Positions 1-45,573 of a DNA stretch of 64,000 nt are shown in pieces. Positions within the stretch are counted from its first letter, which is position 1. Each line of letters starts with the position of its first letter. A program made the translations under genes and the position numbers. The stretch is from Halarcobacter sp. GTDB lineage: Bacteria; Campylobacterota; Campylobacteria; Campylobacterales; Arcobacteraceae. The notes under the pieces are model-generated. The model worked only from the letters and a program-made list of their open reading frames with translations, ran no database searches and was not told where the DNA came from. The DNA lies in NCBI GenBank assembly GCA_048571215.1, contig CP182352.1, forward strand, positions 1,088,001-1,152,000. Direction: 5' to 3'.

Positions 1-1
1 G

Positions 2-3000
2 ATTGGTGATAGTAATAACAACACCCTAAAATCAAATGCAGGAGATGATACTTTAATAGGTGGAGCTGGAGATGACTATCTTGATGGGGGTAATGAAGCT
101 GACAATTCAGTAGGAAATGACTGGGTTGATTATTCTGGTGCTACTTCTACTGGTGTAAAAGTTGATTTATCTAAAACAACCTCACAAAATATTAGTGCAA
201 CAGAAGGTAATGATACCATAGTACATGTTGAACATGTAATTGGCTCTTCTTATGATGATACTTTAATAGGAAATGATGAAGATAACACTTTGGTTGGTGC
301 TGATGGTGATGATACCTTAAAAGGTAATGGTGGTGATGACTCATTTGAAGGTGGAAATGGTCTTGATACAGTTGATTATAGTGGTGTTGTAGAAAAATTA
401 AATATTGATTTGAAATCTTTAACTCCAACAGAAGTAGCTCCTGGTCAAGGAATAGATACTTATGATTCTATTGAAGGGGTAATTGGTGGAAGTAATGATG
501 ATACATTAGCGGGAACTACTAGTGCTAATGTTTTAGGTGGATCTGCTGGTGATGATACTTTAATAGGTTTCGGTGGTGATGATACTATAAATGGTGGTGA
601 TGGAAAAGATACAATTGATTTCTCTTATAGCTCAAATGATATTGTATTAGATTTATCAAATAGTTCGGCTCAAATTACTACAGAGGGGACTTTGTTAGTT
701 TCTAATGTAGAAAATATCCAAGGTGGTTCAGGAAATGATACTCTTACAGGAAGTAGTTTACAAAACACTTTATTTGGTGGAGATGGTAACGATACATTAT
801 TTGGTAATGCAGATAGTAATGTTTTAGATGGTGAAGCTGGAACAGATACAGCTGATTATTCATCAATCTCAACAGGAGTTGGTATTAATGCTAATTTAGA
901 CTCAGGAACAACAGATAAAGTTGAATATAACCTATTGTCGGTTGATACACTAATTAGTATAGAAAATATTAGAGGTTCAAAAAACAGTGATGAGATTATT
1001 GGAGATAAAACTGATAATGTAGATAATCTTTTTGAAGGAATGGCTTCAGGGGATACTATTAATGGTGGATCTGGAAATGATACAATTTATGGTAACAATA
1101 TTAACAATAATATTTCAGGTGGTATTGATGGAGACGATAAATTATCTGGAGGAACAGGTGATGATTCTATTTATGGACAAGGTGGAGATGATACTTTATA
1201 TGGAAATGATGGTAACGATATTTTAGATGGTGGAATAGGAAACGATAAATTATCTGGAGGAACAGGTGATGATTCTATTTATGGACAAGGTGGAGACGAT
1301 ACTTTATATGGAAATGATGGTAACGATATTTTAGATGGTGGAATAGGAGACGATACATTATCTGGAGGAACAGGTGATGATTCTATTTATGGACAAAGTG
1401 GCGATGATACTTTAATTGGAAATGATGGTAATGATATTTTAGATGGTGGAATAGGAAGCGATACTGTTGATTATAGTTATTTAGATACAAGTTCAGTTGG
1501 AATAGATGTTAATTTCGTAAATAGTACAGCAACTGATGGTACATATACTGATACCTTAACAAATATTGAAAATGCTAAAGGTACTATAAATGATGACTCA
1601 TTTATTATGAAAGAGGGTACAACAGCTAATACGATAAATGGGAAAGCTGGAACTGATTTAATTGATTATTCAAATTATTCTACATCTATTAATGTGGATT
1701 TAAGTCTAGCAACAGCCCAAGCAATAGCTACAAGTGATGATAATGATACTATTTTAAATGTAGAAAATTTAATAGCTACCTCTTTAAGTGACACTATTAC
1801 TGGGTCTTCTTTAGATAATAGTTTAGATGGTGGAGAATCAAGTGATACTTTTTATTCAAGTTTAGGGAATGACACGATAAATGGTGGAGTAGATGCTGGT
1901 TCAAATGATATTGATGTAGTTGATTATTCAAATGAAAGTCAAAGAATTATTGTATCAAATGGAGATAGTGTAGATAAAAATAATGGTTATACAGATACTT
2001 TAGTAGATATTGAACAAATTCAAGGTACAGATTATAAAGATACTATAAGTGGTGGAAGTTTATCAGATATTTTTAAAGGTGGAGAATCAAGTGACTTTTT
2101 ATCAGGAGCACAAGGAAATGACACTCTTTATGGAGAAAAAGGTGATGATACCCTAGTAGGTGGAACTGGAAATGACGAATTAAGAGGTGGAAGTAACCTA
2201 ACTACAGGAGATACAGTAGATTATAGTAGTAGAAATGAAGGTATTAATGTAGCTTTAGATTCTGGTAAAGGTACTGCATATATTGATACATCAAATGATG
2301 GATTACAAGGTACTTCAACTGGAGAAGAGGAAGATAGTCTTTATGGTATTGAAAATATTACAGGTTCATCTGTTGATGATATTATTGTAGGTGATATAAA
2401 TGAAAATATTATAAAAGGAAAAGGCGGTAATGATACTATAGATGGTGGAGCTGGTGATGATGACCTTCAAGGTGGAACAGGTGATGACATAATCACTGGT
2501 TCATCAGGAAATGACAATATTTCAGGTGGAGCAGGCGATGATACTTTTATTGATACTGATTTTATAGGTGACACAATAGATGGTGGTGATAATACAGCTG
2601 TTGGGGATACAATTGATTACCATAATTTATCAGAGAGCATTCAAGTAAATTTAAATGATAGTGATACAAGTTCAGTATTTGTACAAGTTGGTTCTGATAC
2701 TGCAAATCATAGAATAGAAAATATTGAAAATATTATTGGAACAGATGAATTAGATATTATTCATGGTAATAGTTCAGATAATTCATTTGAAGGAAGAAAT
2801 GGAAATGATATTTTAGATGGTGAATCAGGAGATGACATTTTAAGTGGTGGAAATGATAATGATACACTACTTGGAGGAGAAGGAGATGATACACTACAAG
2901 GTGATGCTGGAGACGATGTCTTAAGAGGTGGAGCAGGAAATGATGTCTTAGAGGGTGGTGCCGGAAATGATACTGCTGATTTCTCAGATGCTAAAGCAGG

Positions 3001-6000
3001 GATAAATGTAGATTTATCTGCAACTGGAAGCACTCCTGTAAATATTGGTGCAAATTTAGGTTTTGATACATTTGATTCAATAGAGGGTGTTATTGGTGGA
3101 GATTCTGATGATATATTAAAAGGAACCTCTTCTCAAAATACACTTATTGGTGGAGCAGGAAATGATACTTTATATGGTTTAGGTTCAAACAGTGGAGCTG
3201 ATTATTTAGATGGAGGAGAGGGAGATGAAGACTTTGTAAGTTTTAATTATACCTCACCTGTAGATATAACTGTAGATTTAGGTAAGGAAACTGCACAAGA
3301 TACAGATGGTGTAAATGGTGATGACCTAATTATAATAGATATTGAAAATGTTGAAGGTGGTGGTGGAAATGATACTATTACTGGAAACTCTTCAGATAAT
3401 ACAATTTCAACCTTAGCTGGTGATGATACTATATTTGTTAGTGGTGGAGATGATTATATAGATGGTGGGAATGGAGATGAAACCTTAGGAGACACTGTAG
3501 ATTACACTATAGAAAATGGAATTACTGTAACAATACAAGATGATGATTCTATTAAGGTTAATAAAAAATCAAATGGTGAAGATACTTTAGTAAATATTGA
3601 AAATCTAGTAGCTTCTAATGGAGATGATACTTTAAATGGTAATGATAACAATAATGTATTATATGGTGGAGCTGGAAATGACGCTTTCAATGGTAAAGAT
3701 GGAGATGATTCTTTATATGGTGAATCTGGGAATGACAGCTTTTTTGGTGGATTAGGTAATGATTATATTGATGGTGGAGCTGATATTGATACTGTTGATT
3801 ATAGTAAGAGAACTGATGGTGTTGATTTAACCTTAGTAAATAAAGCGGGAACAGCTTATATTGATACTTTCGATGATGGCTTAAAAGTACATACCTCAGG
3901 TGAAGAGGAAGATACTCTTGTTGACATAGAAAATGTTATAGGTTCTCAAGACCATGACTATATTGAAGGTGATATTAACTCAAATGTTATAAAAGGTGAA
4001 GCTGGAGATGATACCTTAAAAGGTGCTGCAGGTGACGATAGTATTGAAGGTGGACTAGGTAATGATTATATTGATGGTGGAGCTGGAGCTGATACTTTAA
4101 AAGGTGGAGAGGGTAATGATACCTTTATCGAAAGATCAAATGATACTAATGGTGACTTAATATATGGTGGAAGTGAAAGTGATAGTAGTAGAGGTAGTGA
4201 TACTGTTGATTATTCACAAAATGACCAAGGGGTTATATTAGATTTAAATGACTTAGGTTTATCAAGTGTTACAATTGGTTCAAGTGTAAATGACCATTAT
4301 TTATCAAATATTGAAAATGTTATTGGAACTACAGGAAATGATACTATTGAAGGGGATAGTGTTGATAATAGTTTAGATGGAAACTTAGGAACAGATACAA
4401 TTTCTTATGCAAATACCTCATCTTCAGTTACAGTAAACCTAGGTGGGGCAATAAGTTCTGATATAAATTTTGATTCAAACAATGAAAATATAACTGCTTC
4501 AACTGGACAAAGTGCTACGTCTGGTACAGATACTTTATCAGGTTTTGAAAATATAATTGGTACAGCCCATGCAGATACCCTAATTGGTGATTCAGATACA
4601 AATACAATTGATGGTGGTAAAGGTGATGATTTACTATTAGGTGGAGCAGGAAGTGACAGTTTTATAGGTGGTGTGGGTATTGATACCGTATCTTATGCTC
4701 TTGAAAGTTCAGTTGATGCCTCTTTACGAAATGGAACAGGTTTAGTTGGATCTGATACTGACCAGTTTACAGATATTGAAAATATTATAGGTACAACTGG
4801 AGATGACACTATAGAGGGTGATGAAAATAATAATAATTTAATAGGTGGAACAGGAACTGATACTTTATCTTATGCTGGTGCTATATCTTCTGATAATACA
4901 GGTGTTACAGTTGATTTATCACTTAATACAGTTGTAACAGTAAATGATGGTATAGATAAAATTAGTGGTTTTGAAAACCTTATAGGTTCTTCAAAAGATG
5001 ATATCTTATCAGGAGATAGTCAAGACAATGTAATAGATGCAGGTAGTGGAAATGATACCTTAAAAGGTGGATATGGTACAGATATATTAAATGGTCAAAA
5101 TGGTAATGATACCTTTATAATAGATGACTCTAATATAGATAATGCAAATGATCAAATAGATGGTGGAGCAAATACAGATACTATTGATTATAGTGCAATT
5201 AACTCTTCTAACTCTTCATACCATATAAATGTTAACTTATCAGTTCCAACAGCTGAGGTTTTAAATGGAGCAGTTACTTTAGATAGTGATACTCTAACTA
5301 GTATAGAAAATGTAATAGGTAGTTCAGGAGATGACACTATTACAGGAGATATACAAAATAATGTTTTAAATGGAAATGCAGGAGATGACATAATAGATGG
5401 TGGAGCAGGTGAAGATTCACTATTGGGTGGAGCAGGAGATGATTTATTTATTCAAAAAGATGGTGAAACTACAAATGATGTAATAAATGGTGGAATAAAT
5501 AATCTTGGAGGAGATACAGTTGATTATTCAAATGTAAACGCAAATATATCTGTAAATCTTCTAGATGGTGTTGCTTCAACAGTAAACCTATCAAGTAGTG
5601 CTGACCATACTATTCAAAATATAGAAAATATTACAGGTTCATCTTTAAATGACACCCTTACAGGAAATAGTTCAGCAAATACACTATTAGGTGGAGCAGG
5701 TGATGATACTATAGATGGTGGAGCGGGTGAAGATTATTTAGATGGTGGAACATCGACAGCCGTTGGAAATACTTTAACCTATGATAGTTCAACTCACTCT
5801 GTAAGAATTGATTTAAGTACAAATAGTGCAATTATTGATTTAGATGGTGATAAGTTTAGTTATGATGGAAATGGTACTAATACTGATGTTGATGATGAAC
5901 AAGATACTATTTATAATTTTAAAACAGCAAAAGGTTCAGATCACGATGATACCTTAATTGCAGGTGATACAGGAAATACACTTTTAGGAAGTGCTGGAGA

Positions 6001-6136
6001 TGATAATTTAATAAGTGGTGCTTCAGATGACTACCTTGATGGTGGAGAAAATAACGATACTTTTATTCTTGGAAATAATGAAGCTTTAAATGGTTCAGAT
6101 ACCATTTTGGGGGGGTACTGGAAAAGATACAGCTGA
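2..6136 (+). CDS. Giant RTX (Ca2+-binding beta-roll) repeat protein, upstream part; 5'-truncated by the window edge and ended by a frameshift at the G7 tract
   Basis: Frame is open from base 2 (IGDSNNNTLKSNAGDDTLIGGAGDDYLDGG...), so the ORF-track start at 290 is not the real start. Continuous GGxGxDxLx nonapeptides and DTVDYS...VDL...IENVIGS modules; ends ...DTILGGYWKRYS* right after the G run. Confidence 0.93.
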   Translation: MGDSNNNTLKSNAGDDTLIGGAGDDYLDGGNEADNSVGNDWVDYSGATSTGVKVDLSKTTSQNISATEGNDTIVHVEHVIGSSYDDTLIGNDEDNTLVGADGDDTLKGNGGDDSFEGGNGLDTVDYSGVVEKLNIDLKSLTPTEVAPGQGIDTYDSIEGVIGGSNDDTLAGTTSANVLGGSAGDDTLIGFGGDDTINGGDGKDTIDFSYSSNDIVLDLSNSSAQITTEGTLLVSNVENIQGGSGNDTLTGSSLQNTLFGGDGNDTLFGNADSNVLDGEAGTDTADYSSISTGVGINANLDSGTTDKVEYNLLSVDTLISIENIRGSKNSDEIIGDKTDNVDNLFEGMASGDTINGGSGNDTIYGNNINNNISGGIDGDDKLSGGTGDDSIYGQGGDDTLYGNDGNDILDGGIGNDKLSGGTGDDSIYGQGGDDTLYGNDGNDILDGGIGDDTLSGGTGDDSIYGQSGDDTLIGNDGNDILDGGIGSDTVDYSYLDTSSVGIDVNFVNSTATDGTYTDTLTNIENAKGTINDDSFIMKEGTTANTINGKAGTDLIDYSNYSTSINVDLSLATAQAIATSDDNDTILNVENLIATSLSDTITGSSLDNSLDGGESSDTFYSSLGNDTINGGVDAGSNDIDVVDYSNESQRIIVSNGDSVDKNNGYTDTLVDIEQIQGTDYKDTISGGSLSDIFKGGESSDFLSGAQGNDTLYGEKGDDTLVGGTGNDELRGGSNLTTGDTVDYSSRNEGINVALDSGKGTAYIDTSNDGLQGTSTGEEEDSLYGIENITGSSVDDIIVGDINENIIKGKGGNDTIDGGAGDDDLQGGTGDDIITGSSGNDNISGGAGDDTFIDTDFIGDTIDGGDNTAVGDTIDYHNLSESIQVNLNDSDTSSVFVQVGSDTANHRIENIENIIGTDELDIIHGNSSDNSFEGRNGNDILDGESGDDILSGGNDNDTLLGGEGDDTLQGDAGDDVLRGGAGNDVLEGGAGNDTADFSDAKAGINVDLSATGSTPVNIGANLGFDTFDSIEGVIGGDSDDILKGTSSQNTLIGGAGNDTLYGLGSNSGADYLDGGEGDEDFVSFNYTSPVDITVDLGKETAQDTDGVNGDDLIIIDIENVEGGGGNDTITGNSSDNTISTLAGDDTIFVSGGDDYIDGGNGDETLGDTVDYTIENGITVTIQDDDSIKVNKKSNGEDTLVNIENLVASNGDDTLNGNDNNNVLYGGAGNDAFNGKDGDDSLYGESGNDSFFGGLGNDYIDGGADIDTVDYSKRTDGVDLTLVNKAGTAYIDTFDDGLKVHTSGEEEDTLVDIENVIGSQDHDYIEGDINSNVIKGEAGDDTLKGAAGDDSIEGGLGNDYIDGGAGADTLKGGEGNDTFIERSNDTNGDLIYGGSESDSSRGSDTVDYSQNDQGVILDLNDLGLSSVTIGSSVNDHYLSNIENVIGTTGNDTIEGDSVDNSLDGNLGTDTISYANTSSSVTVNLGGAISSDINFDSNNENITASTGQSATSGTDTLSGFENIIGTAHADTLIGDSDTNTIDGGKGDDLLLGGAGSDSFIGGVGIDTVSYALESSVDASLRNGTGLVGSDTDQFTDIENIIGTTGDDTIEGDENNNNLIGGTGTDTLSYAGAISSDNTGVTVDLSLNTVVTVNDGIDKISGFENLIGSSKDDILSGDSQDNVIDAGSGNDTLKGGYGTDILNGQNGNDTFIIDDSNIDNANDQIDGGANTDTIDYSAINSSNSSYHINVNLSVPTAEVLNGAVTLDSDTLTSIENVIGSSGDDTITGDIQNNVLNGNAGDDIIDGGAGEDSLLGGAGDDLFIQKDGETTNDVINGGINNLGGDTVDYSNVNANISVNLLDGVASTVNLSSSADHTIQNIENITGSSLNDTLTGNSSANTLLGGAGDDTIDGGAGEDYLDGGTSTAVGNTLTYDSSTHSVRIDLSTNSAIIDLDGDKFSYDGNGTNTDVDDEQDTIYNFKTAKGSDHDDTLIAGDTGNTLLGSAGDDNLISGASDDYLDGGENNDTFILGNNEALNGSDTILGGYWKRYS
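1133..1456 (+). repeat. 108-bp tandem repeat x3 (36 aa = 4 RTX nonapeptides) inside the RTX gene
   Basis: Units start at 1133, 1241 and 1349, encoding DDKLSGGTGDDSIYGQGGDDTLYGNDGNDILDGGIG and variants; nearly identical DNA. Confidence 0.92.
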
Positions 6137-9100
6137 TTATAGTGGGATAACTGATACTTCAAGAAGTATAAGTGTTGAACTTGAAAGTTCTGAAGTTAAA
6201 ACTGTAACTATAAATGGAGCAGCTAATGATACTCTTCAAGATGTTGAGAATGTTACTGGTGGAGCAGGTGATGACACCTTAATTGGAGATGGAAATGTAA
6301 ATACCCTAAAAGGTGGCATTGGAAATGATATTATTGATGGAGCTGATGGAAAAGACTTATTATATGGTGGTGATGGAAACGATAATATAATAGGTGGAGA
6401 TAAAGAGGATACTATTTATGGTGATGCTGGAAATGATATTTTAAATGGAGAAGATGGAGCAGATTCACTTTTTGGTGGAGATGGAGATGACACTTTATTA
6501 GGTGGAGCAGGAATTGATTATTTAGATGGTGGAGCAGAAGATACACTTGGGGATAGTGTTGATTTCTCAACAGAATCAGGAAAACTCGATGTTAATTTTA
6601 GAAATGTAGATGTAAATGGTTATTCACAAGCATATATAGATAATATTGGGGATGATTATTTAAAAGATGTAGAGAATATAAAAGGTACAAATCAAGATGA
6701 TTATATTGGAGGTAATGCTTCAAATAATACAATTATAGCATTAAATGGTGATGATACTATTATTGGTGATGGTGGAGCTGACTATTTAACTGGTGGTGAA
6801 GGTGATGATATCTTTAAAGCTGGTATTGATGCTAATGGTGACAAAATTCTAGAAGATAGTGATGATGGAGTTGATTTTATAGATGGAGGGAACCTATCAG
6901 AAATAAATGGAGATACAGTTGATTATAGTGCAATTTCAAAATCAATAAATGTAACATTAAGTGGTTCAAATGATGCTACAGTTGTTGTAGGTGATTTGGA
7001 TTCTAATAATACAGTTGGTGATTATAAAGATGATACTATAAGAAATATTGAAAATATTATTGGTTCAAGTGCTAATGATACAATCACAGGTGATATAAAT
7101 AAAAATACTCTAGCTGGTAGTCTAGGTGATGATACTTTATATGGTGCAGGTGGAAACGACACTTTAGACGGTGGTAGTGGTATAGATACAGCAGATTATA
7201 CCCAAGCTGCTTCAAAAGTTGTTGTTGATATGAGTATTTCAACAGGAGAAGTTACAGTTGATGGAGATTCAGGAACTGATAATTTAATTGATATTGAAAA
7301 AATTATAGGTTCAACGCATGATGATACATTAAGTGGTTATGATCAAGCAGATACACTTTATGGTGGTGCTGGAAGTGATACTATTTCAGGTGGTAAAGGT
7401 GCTGATAACTTAAGTGGATATGGATTAACTACAGGAACTGATAGTGATTTAGATACTGTTTCTTATTCTTATGTGGCAGCAGCTGATGAAGTAAATATAG
7501 ATTTAACTGCTGGTACTGCAACTGTAGATGTATCAGGAGATACAAGTGATACAGATACCCTAAGTGATTTTGAGAATGTTATTGGTGGAGCAGGAGCAGA
7601 TACTATTAATGGATCATCTGTGGCAAATGTTATTAATGCAGGTTCAGGAGCGGATACAATAACAGGACAAGCTGGAGGTGATCAACTTAATGGAGAAGCA
7701 GGAAATGATACTTTTATTGCTACAGATGCTAATGATGGAGTTGATATTATAGATGGTGGAGCTGATAGTGATACCATTGATTATAGTATATTAGGTGTTG
7801 GAAATGAGATTACATTTACTTTAGCAGAAAGTGGAAACTCAAGTAATATAACAATTGCTGATAGCGGTGATTCTGATTTAATATCAAATGTTGAAAATAT
7901 TATAGCTTCTCAAGGTGATGATGATATTACAGGAAATAGTAGTGTAAATACAATATATGGACAAGCTGGTGATGATCAAATCAATGGTGAGGCAGGAAAT
8001 GATACTTTATATGGTGAAACTGGAGATGATACCTTAAAAGGTGGATTTGGTGATGATTATATAGATGGTGGAACAAATAGTACACAAGGGGATACGGTAG
8101 ATTATTCTGATGCCTCTTCTGGCGTGACTGTTAATATGTCAGGAAATTCAGTTTCAGTTGGAGCTGGACTTGGGACAGATACCCTTGTAGATATAGAAAA
8201 TGCTTTAGGTTCAGATTATGATGATACTTTTATAACAAATGAAAATGCAGATAATAAGTTTTATGGTGGTAATAATGAAGCAGCAGGGGATACAGTAGAT
8301 TATTCTTCTAGACTTACAGATGCAAATGATAAGATTGTTGCAGATTTAACTTCAGGAAATGTAGATATCTATAATGATGGAGCAGTTACTCCAAATGCAA
8401 CAGATACCCTTTTTGATATAGAAAATGTTACAGGTTCATCGGGAAATGACACTATTTCTGGTGATGTAAATAATAATACAATTATAGGTTTATCAGGTAA
8501 TGACACTATATCAGGTAATGATGGTATTGATTATCTTGATGGGGGTACTGGATTAGATGACAGAGTTGATTACTCTTATAGTAATGAAGGTGTAACTGTA
8601 GATTTAGAAAATGATACAGGTTATATAAATGCGGGAGATAATGATACTTTAATAGGTTTTGAAAATGTTAAAGGAACAACTGGAAATGATACTATTATTT
8701 TAAAATCAAATGCTGGATTATTAACTGGTGTTGAAAATGAAATTGATGGTAATAGTGGAGATAATGATACAGTAAGTTATGAAAACTATACAGATGATTT
8801 AACTATTGATATGACCGCTGGTGCTACTGCTACAGGTGATAATGATATTTTAACTAGTATAGAAAATGCAGTAGGTGGTACAGGTGATGATACCTTTATC
8901 TCTGATACTTTAATCGATAATGAGTTTGATGGAAACAGTGGTCAAGATACTGTAGATTATAGCTCTTCTAGTGATACAGTTAATGTTACTTTAAATGGTT
9001 CAATAGCTGCAAATCTTACTTTAGGAAATGGAACAGTTGATAGTGTAAAAAATATAGAAAATGTTATTGGTGGAAGTGTAAATGATACTATTACTGGTGA

Positions 9101-28001: not shown

Positions 28002-28017
28002 TTAAATAGGAAATAAA

Positions 28018-30658: not shown

Positions 30659-30662
30659 TTAT

Positions 30663-32765: not shown

Positions 32766-32769
32766 AACA

Positions 32770-34044: not shown

Positions 34045-34156
34045 TATATCATCTAGTTATTATTTTTTAATATTTCCCTTTATTTTCATCTATTTAAAAG
34101 GTTATTTTAAATAATATAGTATTTACTTTTTAATAAAAATATTTAAGGGTTAATTA

Positions 34157-35110: not shown

Positions 35111-35119
35111 GGCACTTAG

Positions 35120-36268: not shown

Positions 36269-36280
36269 TAGGTATCTTTA

Positions 36281-37045: not shown

Positions 37046-40000
37046 TGATAAGCAGATTTATAAAATATATATTATTTACTTTTTTAATTGTTTCCTCAAC
37101 TATGGCATTAAATGATGAAAATAATCTTAATTTAATAGCGCCTAAAAAACTCAATCAGCTTGAAGGAGAAAAAGATTCTTTAAAAAAAATAGAAAGAACA
37201 TATGTATCAGAAACACCTTCTGTAAGAACTGCAAAAATAAAAAAAGCAAATCAAGACCAAGCTTTAAATACTAAACTTTATACAAAAGTAAAACTTATAG
37301 ATGTTGTACTAGAAACACTATCAAGAAGTGATACTTTAAAATCATCAAGAGAAAATGTAATTCAGTATGAATTAAAAGTTAAAAATGCAATTGCTGATTA
37401 TTATCCTACTGTAAATTTTAGTTATGAATATGGTCGAACTAAAACAAAACCTGATAGTAGTGGAAATAATCATTTTAGATTTTATACTGATGATAACTTT
37501 GAATTTATATTAAGACAAAACTTATATTCAGGTTTTGCAACTAATTATAATATTAAAAGTATTGGAAAAAAACTTGAAGTAGCTAGAAATCAATACAGAA
37601 TTACCCTTGATGAAGAGATTAAAAAAGCTGTAAAGGCTTATTTTGATGTTGTATTTGCAAATCGTTCAGTAAAAGTCAATGAACGAAATATGAAAAAACT
37701 TAATAGAATTTTGAAAATTGTTACAACAAAATATGATAATGGTGGTGCATCATTAGGGGATATGACCTCAATAAAAGCTAGCGTTGCAAATTCAATGACA
37801 AAATTAGTAAAAATCAAATCTAAATTTATTGAGTCATTGAGATATTATGAGTATATTGCAGGTGTTGATTTTCAAAAAACCTTACCATATGAGATGAATT
37901 TTGATATCTCTTTAAAAGAGTTTCAAGAGTTATATGAACATGCCTTAGAAAAAAATAGAAATTTGATTAATTATTATGAGAGTATAGAAGCTGAAAAGTA
38001 TGAACAAAAAAAGAGAAGAGCAGCTTTTGAACCGAAACTTGATTTTGAATTATCTTATGGGGAGATTTATCAAGGTGATGGTATAGCTAAAACTGAAACA
38101 GATGTAAGTGGAAAAGTAAAACTTACATATAATCTATTTAATGGTGGAAAAGATAAAAATAAAGTCCTAGAATCAAATAGTAAGGTTAGAAATCTAAACT
38201 ATAAACTTGAAGAAGAGAAGAAAAAAATCAAATGGAACCTTTCTAAGATACACACTTCTATGCAAAGTATTAATGAAGCCTTAAAAAGTACTATAGAAGA
38301 GATTAAAGCCTCTAGAAAGATGGTTTCAGCATATTGGGATGCTTTTAAGCTTGGAGAGCAAGATTTACAAACACTACTGCAAGGACAAAGACAATTAAAC
38401 TCAGCAGAAACAGAACTTGTTGGTTTTGAAAAAAGTCAAATTATCAACTTCTTTAATACTTTAGAGTTAACAGGAGAACTATCTTCATTTTTCAATGTTG
38501 ATCCAGGAAATCCTAAATTTATAGATTTTTCAAAAAGTGATTATAAAAAAACAGTTATAGCAAAAGATGGACAATTATTATCTTTAACTGGCGATATTGC
38601 AAAAGATAAACTTGAAAAAGAAAAAGAGATTAAAAAACAAGAAGAAAAACCAAAAGAGATTGTAGCTACAAAAATCCCTTTAGATGAAAAACTTAGTAAA
38701 TATGTAGAAGAGTTTAAGAGTTTTGATGATAATAGTTTTACAATAGAGATTGGTGACTTTGATTCGATTTTTGATGCCTTTGATTTCATGATAAAAAATA
38801 AAATAGATGATAACTCTTTTACCTATGAAGTTGTTGATAAATATAATATAAAAACAAAAATTGCCCACAATAATTTTAAAACAAAAGAGGAAGCAAATAA
38901 CTATATAAAACTTTTGGAAGAGAAAAAGTTAGGAAAAGAGTATAAGGTAAGGTTAGTAAAAGATATTAAAGCTTTATATGATAGTTATATGAAAGGTTTA
39001 GCAATAAAACCTCCTAAACCAAAAGTTAAAACTAAAATAAAAATTGTTGAAAAGCTAATTCAAGCACCAGTTAAAAAAGAGTTTCAACCTGATGAACAGT
39101 TTAAAAATAAGTTTTTATCTTCACCTGATGATTTTTATACTATAAATGTATCATCTTTTACAGATTTGAAAACTTTAGAGAAATTTGTTTTAAAAAATGA
39201 GATCAAAGATAATTCATTTTTCTTTAGATATGGCAATAATGGACAACTTATTAAGTTAGTATATGGGGTTTATGAAAATTATACTAATAATATAGAAGAT
39301 CAAATAAATAAGTTGATTTTAGAAAATAAAAATATTTTTCCACTAGTGGAAAAGCTTGGACCTGTAAAAGAGCTATATAATGAAAATATTCAATTTAATA
39401 AAAAAGATGAAAAAGAAGATAAAGAAGACAAAGCTATCCATGAGAACAAATCTAAAGAGATAAAAGAAAATAAAAAAGATGATGAAGTTTTAACTTTAAC
39501 AAAAAGAGTCTCATTAGATGATATAAATAAAGAGAAAAAAGAAAAAATAGAAAAAGCAAAAAAAGAGATTGTTAAAATCTTAGATAAGAATAAAGCTTCA
39601 AATGATAATCAAAAAAATAAAAAAGAGAATATAACAAAAGAAGAAGAGGCAAATTTAGATAGTGTAGTACAAAAAGAAGTATTACAAAAATCTGATGAAA
39701 AACTTGAAAAAGACAAACCTAAAGAGGATATTAAAAAAACTTTAGAAAAAGAAGTAAAAAAAGAGATTATTGATGCACCAAAAAAAGAAGTTAAAAAAGA
39801 GTTAAGCTTAGAAAAAAACTTTTTAAATAGCTTCATAGAGGCACCAAGAAGTTCATATACTATTAATTTAGCTTCATTTCCTACAAAAGAATTAGCAAAA
39901 GAGTATATATCAAATAACAATATTCAAGAAAACAGTTTATTTGTAAGAGCTGATAATGGTGTTATTAAAGTTTTAAATGGGATATATAATACAAGAGAAA

Positions 40001-41562
40001 AGGCAAATAAAGCGATAACTTCATTACCTGAATCAATACAAAGAAATAATCCTTATCTACAAAAAATATTTAGAGTTCAAGATTTGATTAAAGCTAATAG
40101 TTCAAACATTGAAGCACTTCAATTGACAAATAAAGTTGATTTAGAAGAGGAAAAACTTGCAAAAGTAGAAGTAGAAAAAAAAGCTAAACTTGAACTTGAA
40201 AGAAAAGCAAAACTTGATGCAGAAAAACTTGCAAAAGTAGAAGCACAGAAAGAAGCTGAAGATGAAGCTAAAGAAAAAGCAAAACTAGAGGCACAAAAGT
40301 TAGAAAAAGAAAGATTAGCAAAATTAGAAGCTAAAGAAAAAGAAAAAGAAGAAGCTCAAAGAAAAGCAAAACTTGAAGCAGAAAAATTTGCAAAATTGGA
40401 AGCACAGAAAAAAACTGAAGAGGAAGTTAAAGAAAAAGCAAAAGAAGAGGCTCAAAGAAAAGCTAAACTTGAAGCAGAAAAACTTGCAAAATTAGAAGCA
40501 CAGAAAAAAGCTGAAGAGGAAGCTAAAGAAAAAGAAAAATTAGAAGCACAAAAGTTAGAAAAAGAAAGACTTGCTAAAGAAGAAGCAGATAAAAAAGATA
40601 AATTAGCAAAAGAAGAAGCTGAAAGAAAAGCTAAACTTCTTGATGAAAAAGCAGCGCAAAAGGCTAAAGAAGAGGCTTATAAAAAAGCTCAACTTGAAGT
40701 TGAAAGATTAAGAAAAGAGCGACTTGAAAAAGAAGAGATACAAAGAAAAGCTCATGCAGAAGCTATAAAGCAAGCAAGATTAAAAGCACAAATGAAAGCA
40801 AAACTTGAAGCAAAAAAAGCAGAAATTGAAAGAATAGGAAAAGAAAAAGCAGCAAAAAAAGCAAAAGAGATTGCTGAAAGAAAAGCTAAACTCGAAGCTG
40901 AGCAAAAAGCAAAAGAGATTGCTGAAAGAAAAGCTAAACTTGAAGCTGAGCAAAAAGCAAAAGAAGAAGCAGAGAAAAAAGCTAAACTCGAAGCTGAGCA
41001 AAAAGCAAAAGAAGCAGCAGAAAAAAAAGCTAAAGAAGCACAAAAGTTAGAAAAAGAAAGATTGGCAAAACTTGAAGCTAAAAGAAAAGTAAAAAGCATA
41101 GAGAACAAAAAAGAGGATATAGAAAAAGATGCAAGTTTAGAGATAAGTGGATTAAAAAATGAAAAAACTAGCACTTTAAATCCTAATAAAACTACTGTAA
41201 ATAAGCTAAAATTATCATCTAGTCCAATTGAAGAGATAGATTTTGGAGCAAATGGAACAGAAAAAAAACAGAAGGTAATCCCTTATAACAAAAGACAAGA
41301 TAATTTTGCTAATAAATTTGCAAATACATCTAAAAATAAATATACATTAAAAATCATCACATTAAAACCTAGTGAAGTTAAATGGTTTGAAAATGTGCGT
41401 GGATTGTCTCCTACTCATGTTGTAGTTAAAAATAAAAAAAGAGCGACTATCTATTATGGTATCTATGATACTATTGAAGAAGCAAAAAAAGATATAGTAA
41501 ATCTTCATCCTTTAATCTATGAGTCAAATCCTCCTGTTGTAAAAATAGGAACTGTAAAATGA
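37045..41562 (+). CDS. TolC-family outer-membrane channel fused to four SPOR-like domains and a TolA-like K/A/E-rich helical segment (1505 aa)
   Basis: Signal peptide; efflux-protein motifs (ADYYPTVNFSY, LRQNLYSGF, LTYNLFNGG, YWDAFKLGEQDLQTLLQGQ) to ~38500; SPOR-like units at ~38725, 39121, 39841 and 41330 (e.g. YTINLASF...GIYNTREKANKAITSLP); KAKLEAE repeats ~40140-41095. Confidence 0.88.
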   Translation: MISRFIKYILFTFLIVSSTMALNDENNLNLIAPKKLNQLEGEKDSLKKIERTYVSETPSVRTAKIKKANQDQALNTKLYTKVKLIDVVLETLSRSDTLKSSRENVIQYELKVKNAIADYYPTVNFSYEYGRTKTKPDSSGNNHFRFYTDDNFEFILRQNLYSGFATNYNIKSIGKKLEVARNQYRITLDEEIKKAVKAYFDVVFANRSVKVNERNMKKLNRILKIVTTKYDNGGASLGDMTSIKASVANSMTKLVKIKSKFIESLRYYEYIAGVDFQKTLPYEMNFDISLKEFQELYEHALEKNRNLINYYESIEAEKYEQKKRRAAFEPKLDFELSYGEIYQGDGIAKTETDVSGKVKLTYNLFNGGKDKNKVLESNSKVRNLNYKLEEEKKKIKWNLSKIHTSMQSINEALKSTIEEIKASRKMVSAYWDAFKLGEQDLQTLLQGQRQLNSAETELVGFEKSQIINFFNTLELTGELSSFFNVDPGNPKFIDFSKSDYKKTVIAKDGQLLSLTGDIAKDKLEKEKEIKKQEEKPKEIVATKIPLDEKLSKYVEEFKSFDDNSFTIEIGDFDSIFDAFDFMIKNKIDDNSFTYEVVDKYNIKTKIAHNNFKTKEEANNYIKLLEEKKLGKEYKVRLVKDIKALYDSYMKGLAIKPPKPKVKTKIKIVEKLIQAPVKKEFQPDEQFKNKFLSSPDDFYTINVSSFTDLKTLEKFVLKNEIKDNSFFFRYGNNGQLIKLVYGVYENYTNNIEDQINKLILENKNIFPLVEKLGPVKELYNENIQFNKKDEKEDKEDKAIHENKSKEIKENKKDDEVLTLTKRVSLDDINKEKKEKIEKAKKEIVKILDKNKASNDNQKNKKENITKEEEANLDSVVQKEVLQKSDEKLEKDKPKEDIKKTLEKEVKKEIIDAPKKEVKKELSLEKNFLNSFIEAPRSSYTINLASFPTKELAKEYISNNNIQENSLFVRADNGVIKVLNGIYNTREKANKAITSLPESIQRNNPYLQKIFRVQDLIKANSSNIEALQLTNKVDLEEEKLAKVEVEKKAKLELERKAKLDAEKLAKVEAQKEAEDEAKEKAKLEAQKLEKERLAKLEAKEKEKEEAQRKAKLEAEKFAKLEAQKKTEEEVKEKAKEEAQRKAKLEAEKLAKLEAQKKAEEEAKEKEKLEAQKLEKERLAKEEADKKDKLAKEEAERKAKLLDEKAAQKAKEEAYKKAQLEVERLRKERLEKEEIQRKAHAEAIKQARLKAQMKAKLEAKKAEIERIGKEKAAKKAKEIAERKAKLEAEQKAKEIAERKAKLEAEQKAKEEAEKKAKLEAEQKAKEAAEKKAKEAQKLEKERLAKLEAKRKVKSIENKKEDIEKDASLEISGLKNEKTSTLNPNKTTVNKLKLSSSPIEEIDFGANGTEKKQKVIPYNKRQDNFANKFANTSKNKYTLKIITLKPSEVKWFENVRGLSPTHVVVKNKKRATIYYGIYDTIEEAKKDIVNLHPLIYESNPPVVKIGTVK
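40864..41040 (+). repeat. 48-bp (16-aa) tandem repeat, ~3.5 copies, in the TolA-like stalk
   Basis: KEIAERKAKLEAEQKA KEIAERKAKLEAEQKA KEEAEKKAKLEAEQKA KEAAEKKAK. Confidence 0.8.
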
Positions 41563-43751
41563 TAAAAAGATTTACTAAATTAAATAAATTTACTGACACA
41601 ACTTCTAGTACTACAACTATATTATTAGTTTTGTTTGGGATTGCTTTAATTTTTTTATCTTATATATTTTTTCAAGATTATAAAAAAAACCTTATCAAAC
41701 AAAAAATTGATAGTTATAATATAAATGTGGCGTATCTAAATACAAAACTTGATGAGATTATTTTAAACCACAATAAAGCACAAATAAAAAAAGAGATTGA
41801 AAAACTATCTAAAACTTCACTTTTTAGCCTAATAAAATTGGAAAACAATAGATTTATTTTCAATAAAAATAGTTTATTTGAAAACTCAAAAGAGTTTAAA
41901 GATAGAACTTGGAATATTGGTGAAGTTGTAGTTGATATTAGGTTTGGTTCAATAATAAAACTACCAAACAGTTCTTTATATGAGTTTATCCCATCAAATA
42001 ATTATAATATAGACCAAACTATAAAAGTAAGATATCAAGTATATAAAAACTCACAAATAAAAAACATAATCGCAGAGTTTGATTTCTCAAGTATTGATGA
42101 TAAGATAAGAGTAGAAAAAAGTGCAAATGAATTGTCATTGAGTGGTTTTTTAAATACTTTTGAATTAAATAAATCTTATGAGATAAAAAAACAAAAATAT
42201 ACAGTATCAACTGTCACATACAATATCAATTTATATTATATAAATAAGCAGATTCAGGATTTTATGTTTAAAATAATACTTTTTAGTATTTTAATGTATC
42301 TACCAATACTATTTGTTTTAGGTTTTTACCATAAATATCTATTTAATAAATATGTTACAAAATCAATAAATTACTTAAACACTTATATTGATAATATTTT
42401 AGATAATAAATTTTCAATTATGGATAAAACTAAATTTGAGGGTACTCCTGAGATAAAACAGCTTACAAAAAAAGTTTCTAAGCTTTCATCTAAAGTTGCT
42501 TCACTTAGAAATGAACTAAATATAAATAAAGAAACTCTAGAGTTAAAGGCCTCAATAGATACCTTAACAAACCTGCCAAATAAAAATGTATTTGATTTTG
42601 ATATTAAAAGTATGTATGTATCAACAATCTCTGGTTATGTATTTATACTAAAAATTGAAAAACTAACACAAATCAGTGAAAAATACGATTCGGGTTATAT
42701 AAATAGTTTTATTCAAAGTTATGTAAATGTTCTAAAAAATGTGATTTTTAAATACAATAAAGAGATAAAACTATATAGATTTTATGGTTCAAAATTTGCA
42801 ATCATAGCTAGAAACTTTGATATGGAACAAGCTCAAAAGATGTGTGAAGAGATTATCTCAAAGCTTTATGATAATTTAAGTGACATTTACTATCTTCCTG
42901 ACGATTATATCCAAATTGGTGGTACTTTTTTTGATGTTTATGGCTCATTGGATAGTTTATTAAAAAGTACAGATAAGGCATATGAAAGTGCAAGAGCTAA
43001 GGGTGTTAATTCATATCATATAATTGCAGAGGAAGATATCGACAGAAACTATACTAAGTTAGATAATAGTGTTGTAGAAGTTATTGAAAGAGCAGATTTT
43101 GAATTGAAGTTTGTTATGGACTCGTATTTATTTGATGATGAAAATAAATTGATAATGAGTGAAGCCTCACCACAATTATTTGATGAAAATCAAGAAAAAA
43201 TACAAATAGGTTCTTTTATATCAATTGCAGACAAGTTGCATATAGCAGACAAATTTGACAAGTTAGTTATTGTAAAAGTGATTGCTTATATTAGAGGAAA
43301 TGATATACAACATAAAATTGCAATAAATCTATCTATGACTTCTATAAAAAATAGAGACTTTATGGCATGGCTTACTACTGTATTAGAACAAAATCATGAT
43401 ATTATAGATAAAATAGTATTTAGTATAACTTCATATACAGCATATTTGAATAAAGATACTTTTATGAATTTTATTGAAGAGATACATAAAGTTGGTGCAC
43501 AGATTATTTTAAAACGTTATAAAACTACAGAATATCCTTTAGATGAGATACAAAAATTAAATTTAGATTTTATTAGAATGAGTAATGAATATACAGAGAA
43601 TTTTGTAAATGATGTGGTAAAAAAACATAAAGTTAAAAATATCATAATTTTTGCAGAGTTAAATAATATAAAAGTGATAACTGATAGTGTAAAAAATGAT
43701 GCAGATTATGATTTATTGGAAAGACTTGGAACATATGCAACAAGTAGATAG
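41559..43751 (+). CDS. LapD-like membrane protein: TM-periplasmic-TM-HAMP-like-degenerate GGDEF-degenerate EAL
   Basis: DTLTNLPN opens the GGDEF domain but the active site reads YGSKF; EAL site reads EASPQ, with AINLS present and KRYKTTEYP in place of DDFGTGYSS. Confidence 0.82.
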   Translation: MIKRFTKLNKFTDTTSSTTTILLVLFGIALIFLSYIFFQDYKKNLIKQKIDSYNINVAYLNTKLDEIILNHNKAQIKKEIEKLSKTSLFSLIKLENNRFIFNKNSLFENSKEFKDRTWNIGEVVVDIRFGSIIKLPNSSLYEFIPSNNYNIDQTIKVRYQVYKNSQIKNIIAEFDFSSIDDKIRVEKSANELSLSGFLNTFELNKSYEIKKQKYTVSTVTYNINLYYINKQIQDFMFKIILFSILMYLPILFVLGFYHKYLFNKYVTKSINYLNTYIDNILDNKFSIMDKTKFEGTPEIKQLTKKVSKLSSKVASLRNELNINKETLELKASIDTLTNLPNKNVFDFDIKSMYVSTISGYVFILKIEKLTQISEKYDSGYINSFIQSYVNVLKNVIFKYNKEIKLYRFYGSKFAIIARNFDMEQAQKMCEEIISKLYDNLSDIYYLPDDYIQIGGTFFDVYGSLDSLLKSTDKAYESARAKGVNSYHIIAEEDIDRNYTKLDNSVVEVIERADFELKFVMDSYLFDDENKLIMSEASPQLFDENQEKIQIGSFISIADKLHIADKFDKLVIVKVIAYIRGNDIQHKIAINLSMTSIKNRDFMAWLTTVLEQNHDIIDKIVFSITSYTAYLNKDTFMNFIEEIHKVGAQIILKRYKTTEYPLDEIQKLNLDFIRMSNEYTENFVNDVVKKHKVKNIIIFAELNNIKVITDSVKNDADYDLLERLGTYATSR

Positions 43752-43760
43752 GATAGGGTG

Positions 43761-44555
43761 ATGTATAAAATTTTATATTTATTTATTTTAATATTTTTTA
43801 GTGGATGTAGTATTTCAAATAACAATCTAAAAGTTCCAGAAAAAGAAAAATATACCACAGTAAGAGAATATAAAGATATTTCGAAAGATGCAATATTTGA
43901 AGCTGCAAAAAAGGTTTTTATAATCTCAGGTGGTTCAGAGTTTAGAATTGATTCCTATAGAGATAATCTTCAAGTTTCAAAAACAAAACTTACCCATTAC
44001 CCTTTTTATGCTTATACAACAGATGATATTTGGAATATTTCTATAGATGAGAAAGAGAATGTTTCAACAGTAAAAGTAAGCCTAAAAAGAGTAAAAGATT
44101 TTGATAAACAAAATGCAAGCTATTTATCTAAAGATTTACATGAATTATTATTAGATAGAGTAGATTTTCTTTTAGGTTTAAAAGATAGTTGGCCTTGGTG
44201 TATTGGCTACTTTACCTTTGATGATGCCTTGTGTGATGTTATAGATTTGCATCTATATACAAGACCTACTAAAGAAGACAAAGTAAAAGATATTTTGATT
44301 TCACAAAGAAAACCAAGTCAATCTATACCTGATATAGATAAGGATATTTTAAATGATGATATAGTATTGTCTTTAGAAGATGGTGATACAGATATTCTTA
44401 ATGGCAATGTAGCAGATAAAAAAGAAGAAAAAAGTAAAGAACCAACGGCAGAAGATGATGCTTTAGATAAAAGAATTTTAGAATTAAATGATAAAGTTAA
44501 CTCAAATGTTAAAGAGATGTTAGATAAAAATGAGGAAAAGATAAAAGATGAGTAG
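43761..44555 (+). CDS. Putative lipoprotein, function unknown
   Basis: MYKILYLFILIFFSG-C lipobox; acidic low-complexity C-terminus. Confidence 0.75.
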   Translation: MYKILYLFILIFFSGCSISNNNLKVPEKEKYTTVREYKDISKDAIFEAAKKVFIISGGSEFRIDSYRDNLQVSKTKLTHYPFYAYTTDDIWNISIDEKENVSTVKVSLKRVKDFDKQNASYLSKDLHELLLDRVDFLLGLKDSWPWCIGYFTFDDALCDVIDLHLYTRPTKEDKVKDILISQRKPSQSIPDIDKDILNDDIVLSLEDGDTDILNGNVADKKEEKSKEPTAEDDALDKRILELNDKVNSNVKEMLDKNEEKIKDE

Positions 44556-45486
44556 AGTATTTTTATTAGTATGTTTAATTTTTTTTTCACTTAATGCAAC
44601 ACAGCTTGATGAAGCAATAAAGAATATAAAAAATAAAAAATACTCTTTGGCATTAGAACAATTAAATACTCTTGCTTTAGATGAAAACCCTTTAGCTCAA
44701 TATAACCTTGGACTACTGAACTACAAAGGTTTAGGAACTGAACAAAATAAAAGCTTGGCTTTTTTTTGGTATGAATTAGCTGCAAAAAATGGAAATAAAC
44801 AAGCACAAAACAATTTAGCTCATATGTATTATATGGGGGAAGTTGTAGAAAAAGATTTAGCAAAAGCAAAATACTGGTATGAAAAATCTGCAAAACAAGG
44901 TTATGCTTTGGCACAACTAAATCTTGGGATGATTTATGAGCGTAATCCAACAAAAGAAAACTTAAAAAAAGCCTTTGATATGTATAAAAAAGCTTCATTG
45001 CAAGGGGTTATAATAGCTCAAAATAATCTAGCTTCTATGTATTATTATGGCAAAGGTGTAAAAAAAGATAAAGTAAAAGCTTTATATTGGTATAAAACTT
45101 CTGCAAATGCTGATGATAGTATTGCTCAATATAATCTAGGAATAATGCACCTAATAGGTGATACTGCTAAAAAAGACCCTGAAAAAGCTATCTCCTTACT
45201 TGAAAAATCTGCACAACAAGGTTATAAAAATGCTATGCTAAAATTGGCAGATTTATATAGAGAAGGTAATGTAGTATCACAAAACTATAAAAGAGCCTTA
45301 GAGTTATATGAAAAAACGGCAAAAAATTATAATAATACAAAAGCAATGTATTATGTAGGTCTTTTTAATTTTCATGGATATGGTACTGTAAAAAATATGT
45401 CACAAGCTAAATATTGGATAAAAAGGGCAGCATTACTAGGTCATGAAAGATCAAAAAACTTTTTATCAACACATAATTTTTACTAA
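44548..45486 (+). CDS. Secreted Sel1-like repeat protein
   Basis: Signal peptide and about seven AQYNLG..Y..G.G....D...A..WY..AA repeats. Confidence 0.92.
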   Translation: MSRVFLLVCLIFFSLNATQLDEAIKNIKNKKYSLALEQLNTLALDENPLAQYNLGLLNYKGLGTEQNKSLAFFWYELAAKNGNKQAQNNLAHMYYMGEVVEKDLAKAKYWYEKSAKQGYALAQLNLGMIYERNPTKENLKKAFDMYKKASLQGVIIAQNNLASMYYYGKGVKKDKVKALYWYKTSANADDSIAQYNLGIMHLIGDTAKKDPEKAISLLEKSAQQGYKNAMLKLADLYREGNVVSQNYKRALELYEKTAKNYNNTKAMYYVGLFNFHGYGTVKNMSQAKYWIKRAALLGHERSKNFLSTHNFY

Positions 45487-45525
45487 AATCAGATTTATAT
45501 ACTATATATTGACAAAATTGTTAAA

Positions 45526-45559
45526 TTTAAGAGTAAATCAATTAAGTTTTAATTATAAT
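45526..45559 (+). promoter_or_regulatory. Probable sigma70 promoter for the tRNA
   Basis: TATAAT at 45554-45559, 14 bp before the tRNA, with an AT-rich upstream tract containing TTTAAG. Confidence 0.45.
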
Positions 45560-45573
45560 TTCAATCTCACAAT

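Follow-up and report, generated by a model that had tools for sequence, protein, structure and literature searches.

What does a pair of MotA/MotB-like genes do in the middle of an operon that encodes the secretion of a single giant protein? The question is raised by a locus of Halarcobacter sp. (Campylobacterota, Arcobacteraceae), which is contained in a stretch of 64,000 nucleotides (nt) of contig CP182352.1 (assembly GCA_048571215.1). This stretch, here called the window, corresponds to G000:C1:1088001-1152000 within a 3.61-Mb single-contig genome. From 1 to 45486 in window coordinates it carries an uninterrupted run of plus-strand genes for a giant RTX protein, a type I secretion system (T1SS), a putative sensor and the two subunits of a stator-like channel, named A and B in the following. 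To our knowledge, no T1SS-associated stator-like ion channel other than SiiAB has been studied. Structure and genomic context support an accessory stator of this already known SiiAB kind, here with a ZorA-like A subunit and with an operon-encoded sensor. It is considered probable, with moderate confidence, that this ion-driven SiiAB-type stator, equipped with a sensor of its own, determines what becomes of the giant protein upon secretion.

In a preliminary description of this DNA twelve genes were listed as a co-directional and mostly tightly spaced run, and all twelve are present at the positions given and on the plus strand. The intergenic gaps amount to 16, 4, 4, 112, 9, 12 and 6 nt and the overlaps to 20, 1, 4 and 8 nt. 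The widest spacing, of 112 nt, separates the HlyD gene from the dCache gene and the other gaps measure 4-16 nt. The A- and B-subunit genes are 12 nt apart and the stop codon of the latter overlaps the TolC start at 37045. The sensor-stator module and the secretion apparatus around it comprise the following genes:

34157..35110, + strand: sensor, a two-transmembrane (TM) protein of 317 amino acids (aa) with a periplasmic dCache-like domain; hydrophobic segments 19-45 and 297-317, dCache_3 matches in homologues
35120..36268, + strand: stator A subunit, 382 aa, with an ExbB/TolQ/ZorA-fold core (residues 1-230) and a cytoplasmic helix of about 120 residues; assigned by relatives, AlphaFold2 (AF2) model and hidden Markov models (HMMs)
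36281..37045, + strand: stator B subunit, 254 aa, with a TM helix containing Asp17, a disordered linker, a helix and a minimal OmpA-like domain of SiiA type; assigned by alignment, AF2 model and Foldseek
30663..32765, + strand: T1SS ATP-binding cassette (ABC) transporter with an N-terminal C39-like domain (LssB/LapB type); TIGR03375 with 730.5 bits against a cut-off of 693.1, PF03412 with E 2.7e-10
32770..34044, + strand: HlyD-family periplasmic adaptor of the T1SS; TIGR01843 with E 2e-103
37045..41562, + strand: TolC-family outer-membrane channel, 1,505 aa; OEP E 2.8e-37, TIGR01844 E 8.9e-49, SPOR E 5.9e-12

With ABC transporter, HlyD adaptor, TolC channel and a Cys-free substrate with C-proximal RTX repeats, the constituents of a T1SS are present. 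For the window proteins of the dCache, A and B genes and of a lipoprotein gene further downstream, no significant match was obtained in Pfam or NCBIfam, the only traces among the four being sub-threshold (MotA_ExbB E 0.055, Cache E 0.05-0.07). The earlier labels Cache-like, MotA-like and MotB-like are upheld via relatives and models and not via the matches of the window proteins themselves.

The conservation of the arrangement was analyzed in 14 Arcobacteraceae stretches of 19.5 kb and in a pattern scan with one genome per species, resulting in 80 loci that were searched by tblastn with the window proteins and of which many lie on contigs ending within the locus. The A subunit is encoded in 25 of 61 sampled Arcobacteraceae genomes and in 14 of 22 genera. 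The order dCache-A-B-TolC-LapD-like-lipoprotein is conserved in 14/14 stretches and the Sel1 gene is present in 13; ABC and HlyD genes are adjacent in 12, with an orientation inverted relative to the block in three of these (L019, L020, L024). All but one of the 80 loci carry Campylobacterota labels, encompassing Arcobacteraceae, Sulfurimonas, Sulfurospirillum, Sulfuricurvum and metagenome-assembled genomes named 'Helicobacteraceae'. Matches were found in 77 loci for dCache, 77 for the B subunit, 74 for TolC, 55 for HlyD and 54 for the ABC transporter, followed by the TPR protein (44), the LapD-like protein (42), Sel1 (41), the lipoprotein (38), the C-terminus (30) and the middle (19) of the RTX protein and FkbM (15). 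In L059, L066, L069, L071 and L074 the ABC-HlyD pair is likewise inverted yet adjacent. As the block recurs in all 14 stretches and in 80 Campylobacterota loci, its arrangement is not due to chance. Synteny of the stator genes with T1SS genes in other genomes had been named as a check in the preliminary description; it holds across the phylum and therefore a lack of synteny does not speak against the system. Distant relatives of the A subunit (25-35% identity) were found in metagenomes, and HlyD or TolC genes are present in 0/39 of their long loci, hence the link to a T1SS is seen only in the Campylobacterota clade. Three of the distant loci were scanned with Pfam and contain a trio of OmpA, MotA-like and OmpA (coiled-coil) genes next to efp, suhB and thiE-type genes (e.g., L131:6958-10487 and L193:7258-10133). 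A gene for an MsbA-like ABC protein is located near the distant A relatives in 19 of the 39 long loci (L122-L201).

For the A subunit, the MotA_ExbB family (PF01618) is detected with E<=0.01 in 12/30 relatives and the curated cut-off is passed in four of these 30. With the AF2 model (pLDDT 80.7), Foldseek retrieved ExbB, ZorA and TolQ first and MotA lower down (best E 1.2e-3). Comparison by VIA-align yielded exclusively ExbB, TolQ or ZorA in the best 21 rows, with 177-235 residues aligned and Z 10.3-12.1 (ExbB Z 12.1, TolQ Z 11.9; MotA/PomA Z 8.6-9.5), where a Z of about 12 can also arise between unrelated helical bundles, a point to be held against the assignment. A chance match of the fold is unlikely because of the uniform list of ExbB, TolQ and ZorA and because of the HMM evidence. 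Model and structure comparison thus support the ExbB/TolQ/ZorA/MotA fold for the gene formerly called MotA-like. As judged by its HMM matches the A subunit is ZorA-like, which was not noticed earlier: six ZorA models of PADLOC match the window protein, ZorA3 with E 1.2e-6 and thereby better than Pfam, and ZorA3 matches a 782-aa orthologue (L086) with E 5.3e-19 and 66 bits across core and tail. Sequence searches of the PDB with two single A subunits retrieved no solved stator or ZorA chain, and a search with the A-subunit profile was swamped by coiled-coil matches, with a weak match to 8vvn (E 0.016). In a clustered protein set 693 relatives were found at E<=1e-3; among the 120 matches listed all are at least 63% identical and the organism names given are all Arcobacter-group or other Campylobacterota. 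An exhaustive search resulted in 840 representatives, many of which share the first ~350 residues, with tails of up to 786 aa. Elsewhere in the genome six ordinary MotA_ExbB genes are encoded, and a further divergent open reading frame (ORF) of this family, with 363 aa and 36 bits, was observed at G000:C1:1560503-1560760 (L121).

The B subunit has a hydrophobic stretch at 12-44, and D17 within its single TM helix is invariant in 30/30 aligned orthologues. Also invariant are N10, P11 and V16, which together with D17 mark the start of the TM helix, and D192, S198, K203, Q204, L207 and R209 in the C-terminal domain, with R209 located in the second helix of this domain and a candidate counterpart of Arg162 of SiiA, the conserved Arg for peptidoglycan binding. 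The AF2 model shows a helix at 15-50 including the TM segment, a linker at 51-86 with pLDDT <50, a helix at 86-121 and a domain with b/a/b/a/b/b topology at 143-253. Ranks 1-3 of the Foldseek search are all SiiA-PD (6qvp; E 1.8e-6 to 4.5e-6, TMt 0.82-0.83), with 20-22% identity in the structural alignment, followed by H. pylori MotB, OmpA-like domains and Pal. Pfam revealed no relevant family in the B subunits (0/30 orthologues). PADLOC models were compared with three B subunits: the window copy has no match, the copy of L096 matches ZorB1 with E 0.0066 and the copy of L086 matches an unrelated model weakly. The invariant Asp in the membrane, SiiA-PD as best structural match and the synteny with T1SS genes bear out the MotB-like gene and the Sii-like layer that had been proposed.

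The third component was described as an orphan Cache-like sensor, which is supported via its homologues: of 27 homologues, 13 match dCache_3 (best E 1.7e-8) and four match sCache_3_3, and an Atlas feature search with the sensor protein returned Cache and CHASE clusters. Since nothing follows the second hydrophobic segment and since the matches are to Cache domains, it is most likely a protein that binds a ligand in the periplasm and lacks a cytoplasmic output domain. A complex prediction for the A subunit (1-240) and the dCache protein gave 0.13 against a mark of 0.32, a score that counts neither for nor against an interaction. Five of the 27 homologues (rows 21, 22, 25, 26 and 27 of alignment A3) show weak MotA_ExbB matches, the best with E 0.0014.

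Downstream of the channel gene three further genes complete the run:

41559..43751, + strand: LapD-like inner-membrane protein with two TM segments (14-41, 234-258), a periplasmic domain of ~190 aa and degenerate GGDEF and EAL domains (PF00990, PF00563)
43758..44555, + strand: lipoprotein with lipobox Cys, not LapG-like; only A49, K51 and H128 are invariant
44548..45486, + strand: Sel1-repeat protein with seven repeats (PF08238, E 1.1e-62); N-terminus signal-peptide-like by eye

The channel protein itself is enlarged. Its channel part comprises residues 82-480, with OEP matches at 92-265 and onward, and a C-terminal extension of ~1,000 residues contains one or more SPOR domains and a K/E/A-rich coiled coil. 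Pfam assigns SPOR at 935-1005 (E 5.9e-12) and a second, weak one (E 0.004). By eye, four SPOR-like segments were noted in the extension, at residues ~565-640, ~697-770, 935-1005 and ~1432-1505. Among 29 of the 80 loci, hand-picked by length and spread, two forms were distinguished. In the first form (14 loci) the A subunit has 366-395 aa, TolC has 743-1,206 aa (1,505 in the window) and the LapD-like protein is present; in the second form (15 loci) the A subunit has 501-855 aa, TolC has 450-597 aa (14 scored) and the LapD-like protein is absent. The lengths of the A-subunit tail and of TolC are thus inversely related (L081-L107 vs L034-L078), a relation that may reflect one evolutionary event since the two forms are two clades. 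The long-tail type is found in Sulfurimonas, Sulfuricurvum and Sulfurospirillum and the type with wall-tethered TolC and c-di-GMP-receptor-like protein in Arcobacteraceae. The layer of LapD-like protein, lipoprotein, Sel1 protein and long TolC is confined to one clade, which had escaped the preliminary description. The two natural versions, one with long motor tail and short TolC and the other the reverse with a receptor-like protein added, hint at which parts may substitute for each other.

The Lap component of the proposed Sii/Lap hybrid stands in part only. In analogy to the Pseudomonas fluorescens Lap system, the locus encodes an ABC transporter of LssB/LapB type and a giant RTX-bearing T1SS substrate, and the LapD-like protein resembles LapD in its two TM segments, its periplasmic domain and its degenerate GGDEF-EAL module. 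The solved structures closest to this module by sequence are of LapD type (6pwj, E 2.3e-12; 3pjw, E 7.3e-12), and the NCBIfam LapD model matches the protein with E 7.5e-33, but with 114 bits against a cut-off of 1020. The GGDEF site reads YGSKF in the window, aligned with RGGEF of LapD, and is [YFHN]G[SA]xF in 15/15 orthologues, in which the first Gly is lost and the Leu of EAL is replaced as well; the designation as dead GGDEF-EAL is thereby retained as a prediction from these substitutions. Unlike in LapD, no match to LapD_MoxY_N was obtained, neither in the whole protein nor in residues 1-314, and the periplasmic part matches no family. A LapG gene (PF06035, Peptidase_C93) is absent from the locus, all five matches in the genome, of which four are above the cut-off, being located elsewhere. 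The giant protein, unlike LapA, shows no match to any retention-module family at its N-terminus, where residues 1-1000 match RTX-type families only, and no Ala-Ala, the di-alanine LapG site, occurs in its first ~250 residues. As LapG and LapD_MoxY_N are lacking and the N-terminus of the substrate does not appear to be of LapA type, the GGDEF-EAL protein is to be regarded as a LapD-like receptor and not as part of a Lap system. The lipoprotein was considered as LapG analogue and rejected, as it belongs to no family and has no conserved Cys-His-Asp set; neither Pfam, NCBIfam nor PADLOC matched it and the Atlas returned neither a family nor named relatives. Four LapG-type (Peptidase_C93) and two LapD_MoxY_N genes are encoded elsewhere in the genome, with canonical LapD/LapG pairs at G000:C1 ~589,100-590,000 and ~2,295,700-2,297,750 (L108-L115), and the organism therefore probably uses true Lap-type regulation for other adhesins.

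In Salmonella, SiiAB was reported to conduct protons and to bind peptidoglycan (bioRxiv 10.1101/641415), and in SiiA a TM helix containing Asp13 is followed by a disordered linker and an OmpA core of minimal size (bioRxiv 10.1101/641415; PMC12607715). Deletion of siiAB leaves secretion intact and lowers invasion, and SiiF binds SiiB (PMC12607715); how SiiAB uses the proton gradient for retention versus release of SiiE is stated there as unclear. A paper of 2025 counts SiiAB among the 5:2 motors, as their representative in type I secretion (PMC12204202), and the passages searched in a 2025 survey of MotAB proteins contain no mention of Sii or Campylobacterota (PMC12505986). A full-text search of the open-licence literature for the locus type described here yielded papers on SiiAB, Lap and Zorya only.

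The locus, covering window positions 1-45486 and 7.1 kb upstream, is a T1SS locus for one RTX beta-roll protein, which has ~11,700 residues, contains no Cys and is extremely acidic; it further encodes an accessory inner-membrane module of three proteins, namely the A subunit, the SiiA-like B subunit and the dCache protein. By analogy with SiiAB, the A/B pair may assemble as A5B2, i.e., as an ion-driven stator of 5:2 type that is anchored to peptidoglycan and that would contact the T1SS. This stator would not be the power source of export; ion flux through it would rather set whether the giant substrate is retained at the cell or released, as supposed for SiiAB, and the dCache protein would serve as built-in ligand gate, the counterpart of CheM for SiiAB. 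In Arcobacteraceae and in a neighbouring clade labelled Sulfurimonas, a second layer of SPOR-tethered TolC, LapD-like receptor, lipoprotein and Sel1 protein may place the decision between retention and release under the control of cyclic di-GMP (c-di-GMP), presumably by binding of the latter to the LapD-like receptor, of which the lipoprotein and the Sel1 protein are likely periplasmic partners. The sensor-gated, ion-gradient-driven retention machine suggested in the preliminary description thus persists as an analogy to SiiAB and CheM.

The analogy extends to several features. In Salmonella pathogenicity island 4 (SPI-4), too, the operon for T1SS export of one giant Ca-binding surface protein includes genes for a MotB-like and a MotA-like protein, SiiA and SiiB. 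With SiiA, the B subunit shares the TM Asp, the disordered linker and the minimal OmpA-type domain. The ABC transporters of both systems have a C39-like domain (PMC12607715 for SPI-4). In both cases the stator is associated with a periplasmic ligand sensor, which is CheM in Salmonella and the operon-encoded dCache protein here, so that the operon-fixed sensor agrees with the CheM-SiiAB link. Unlike CheM, this dedicated sensor has two TM segments and lacks chemotaxis domains. Unlike SiiAB, which is found in Enterobacteriaceae, the present system occurs in Campylobacterota and has a ZorA-like tail on the A subunit, additional genes for LapD-like protein, lipoprotein and Sel1 protein and a SPOR-bearing TolC. 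The locus family would accordingly constitute a phylum-wide and sequence-divergent second lineage of T1SS stators with an RTX substrate. Arcobacteraceae, Sulfurimonas and their kin dominate sulfidic interfaces, and a surface protein in the megadalton range that is controlled in this way is likely central to their attachment.

Several observations weigh against this reading of the locus as a SiiAB-type retention system. Neither the A nor the B subunit of the window reaches a curated family threshold in Pfam or NCBIfam, and the best HMM matches of the A subunit are to anti-phage ZorA and not to any secretion protein. The model of the B subunit is of moderate quality (mean pLDDT 72, pTM 0.45). 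In a search of PDB sequences with the B-subunit profile, SiiA-PD was not among the four matches at E<=10, which are noise only; the likeness of the B subunit to SiiA is therefore structural only, without a match at the sequence level, and could be due to convergence on the minimal OmpA fold. The layer of LapD-like protein, lipoprotein and Sel1 protein is missing from about half of the 80 loci and hence does not belong to the core. With its ~11,700 aa of RTX beta-roll type, the substrate is not an Ig-repeat adhesin like SiiE with its 53 BIg domains. A role of the substrate in adhesion is putative, and its gene is frameshifted in this assembly.

Another possibility is that the stator powers export, similar to ExbBD-TonB or TolQRA, either by opening the channel, by pulling or ratcheting the unfolded chain of 1.2 MDa or by driving its Ca-dependent folding at the surface, in which case the giant protein would depend on the stator for its exit. 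This is regarded as unlikely, being nevertheless the best of the rival explanations. It is in agreement with the fold of the A subunit, which is nearer to ExbB and TolQ (Z 11-12) than to flagellar MotA, with the location of the TolC gene directly after the B gene in 74 of 80 loci (start and stop overlapping in the window), i.e., next to an outer-membrane protein on which the stator could act, and with the A tail of 500-855 residues in loci with short TolC, as though either form required a long element. Compared to SiiE, moreover, the substrate has about twice the length or more (11,703 aa compared to 595 kDa; PMC12607715). However, in SiiAB as the sole case studied, deletion of siiA or siiB leaves SiiE secretion running (PMC12607715). 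Unlike in ExbBD-TonB and TolQRA-Pal, no protein of a TonB- or TolA-like transducer family was found and the domain of the B subunit is of OmpA type and not of ExbD/TolR type; the TolA-like part which had been assigned to the TolC fusion did not hold, being merely a K/E/A-rich coiled-coil stretch of similar composition that matches no family. Many T1SS without such a module export giant RTX adhesins such as LapA, which counts against a role in powering export as well.

A further-reaching idea, to be taken as speculative and of low probability, is that the A/B pair is a rotary 5:2 motor of ZorA type with its tail, gated by the dCache protein and integral to the T1SS. Such a motor might draw on the ion gradient to mechanically hold, wind out or release the 1.2-MDa filament, acting via the cytoplasmic tail or via the wall-tethered TolC and the c-di-GMP receptor. 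In that case Zorya motors and SiiAB would both derive from a single ancient class of motors reporting on envelope status. The link of the A subunit to ZorA has a bearing on the origin of Zorya motors.

This link also raises the possibility that dCache, A and B form a Zorya-like module for envelope sensing or phage defence, or another stand-alone signalling motor, and that this trio merely travels with a T1SS island without acting on the giant protein, which is considered quite improbable. Here, the ZorA HMMs as best sequence matches (six models for the window protein, 66 bits in L086), the ZorA chains among the top structural matches and the weak profile match to 8vvn argue for a relationship, as does the shared architecture, in which the membrane core continues into a long helical tail in the cytoplasm, of 120 residues in the window and up to ~600 residues of coiled coil in the distant clade. 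The B subunit carries a peptidoglycan-binding domain as ZorB does, and the distribution over 25 of 61 genomes is patchy. However, models for ZorC, ZorD, ZorE, ZorF and ZorG match 0/4 accessory proteins (dCache, LapD-like, lipoprotein, Sel1), among which the sole PADLOC match is that of Sel1 to PtuA1 (E 5.3e-8). The B subunit of the window matches no ZorB model and a solved ZorA was not found by sequence. Furthermore, in the majority of loci with at least three families the trio is flanked by HlyD and TolC within the secretion operon, a pattern not shown by defence islands. The absence of a Zorya partner among the four accessory proteins and the position of the trio inside a secretion operon thus weaken the Zorya interpretation, and the SiiAB-type accessory stator is retained.

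The substrate for which such a stator would decide between retention and release occupies the first 28 kb of the window and extends beyond its start:

1..6136, + strand: giant RTX protein, first frame, 5'-open in the window; 27 HemolysinCabind stretches, E 2.9e-151
6090..28001, + strand: giant RTX protein, second frame of 7,303 codons, with RTX nonapeptides, a non-RTX tail and a final RTX block
6109..6115, + strand: G7 homopolymer with a +1 frameshift of the giant ORF, seen in the sequence and in contigs of public runs
22956..25961, + strand: about 17 tandem copies of a 177-nt (59-aa) unit within the non-RTX C-terminal part

The identification as RTX protein was correct, with two corrections: the ATG is located at genome position 1080889, 7,111 nt upstream of the window, and the ORF is shifted in frame at G7. 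Removal of one G makes the sequence on both sides read as one RTX motif, resulting in a single ORF of 35,112 nt that encodes 11,703 aa. The protein contains 0 Cys, 14.4% Asp and 14.1% Gly, with 2,093 D+E compared to 272 K+R. HemolysinCabind stretches number 27+42+11, and 132 strict GGxGxD motifs are evenly distributed from residue ~485 to ~9,500. Beyond ~9,500 follows the non-RTX part with the ~17 copies of the 59-aa unit, and a final RTX block lies ~280 residues ahead of the C-terminus. Family scans of the protein revealed no Ig-type or other adhesin families. The 59-aa unit is rich in Thr, Ser and Asn and matches no family.

Contigs of four public runs (X1-X4) were compared over 5800-6500. 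Those of X1-X3 read G7 and may be the source of this assembly, while the contig of X4, a run that shares its sample with X1 and X2, has one base fewer at 6109 at a depth of 87, i.e., G6. Decay of the locus, with the giant gene as frameshifted pseudogene and the accessory genes as silent relics, is the least credible of the explanations, since apart from G7, on which three of the four runs agree, no other stop interrupts the 35 kb, the 11 downstream genes are all intact and X4 yields the single frame. Phase-variable homopolymer tracts are known in Campylobacterota. The difference between G7 and G6 could thus be an assembly error or phase variation, with minor variants hidden by the contigs, either of which fits a single-base homopolymer difference better than decay.

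Two genes between the giant gene and the ABC gene encode putative modification enzymes:

28018..28869, + strand: FkbM-family methyltransferase; PF05050 E 1.2e-21, TIGR01444 E 4.3e-28, PDB 2py6 E 4.6e-6
28850..30658, + strand: TPR protein (TPR_1 E 2.6e-58) with a C-terminal half resembling glycosyltransferase family GT9, possibly of GT-B fold; GT9 sub-threshold

In the C-terminal half of the TPR protein GT9 reaches 20.9 bits, below the cut-off of 22, and a PDB sequence search with this half returned nothing; many orthologues of the protein carry a PF01075 match. In related Arcobacteraceae, the TPR-GT9-like protein also exists as a fusion with class-I or FkbM methyltransferase domains, with a length of 809-830 aa (P0272-P0277, P0351). 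Following Rosetta-stone logic, these fusions link the TPR-GT9-like and FkbM enzymes to each other and not yet to the giant protein. For the possibly glycosylated substrate of the preliminary description, the weak GT9 signal and the fusions in relatives are what points to it, and modification of the giant protein by both enzymes would be conceivable.

Predictions of regulatory sites within 27900-46800 are uninformative in this AT-rich DNA, with 127 promoter-like sites compared to 112 +/- 12 in shuffled sequences and seven terminator-like sites compared to 4.0 +/- 2.2. An Rfam scan of the window and of 18 kb upstream revealed no family and hence no c-di-GMP riboswitch. In the 1.19 kb after the Sel1 gene (45487-46675), where no Rfam family is matched either, the sole ORFs of at least 60 aa are two short overlapping ones at 46367-46694. 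The genes at 46.7-64 kb were considered as part of the system and rejected: their GT2 and GT4 proteins match in 0/80 related loci and the adjacency is therefore not conserved. They form a co-directional glycan-type cluster (46676-64000) with genes for GT2, GT4, two GDSL proteins, MBOAT, an SxtJ-like protein, a carbamoyltransferase, an epimerase and a DegT aminotransferase, and further for a sulfotransferase, a methyltransferase, a Wzx-like flippase, a GT2, a nucleotidyltransferase and a dehydratase.

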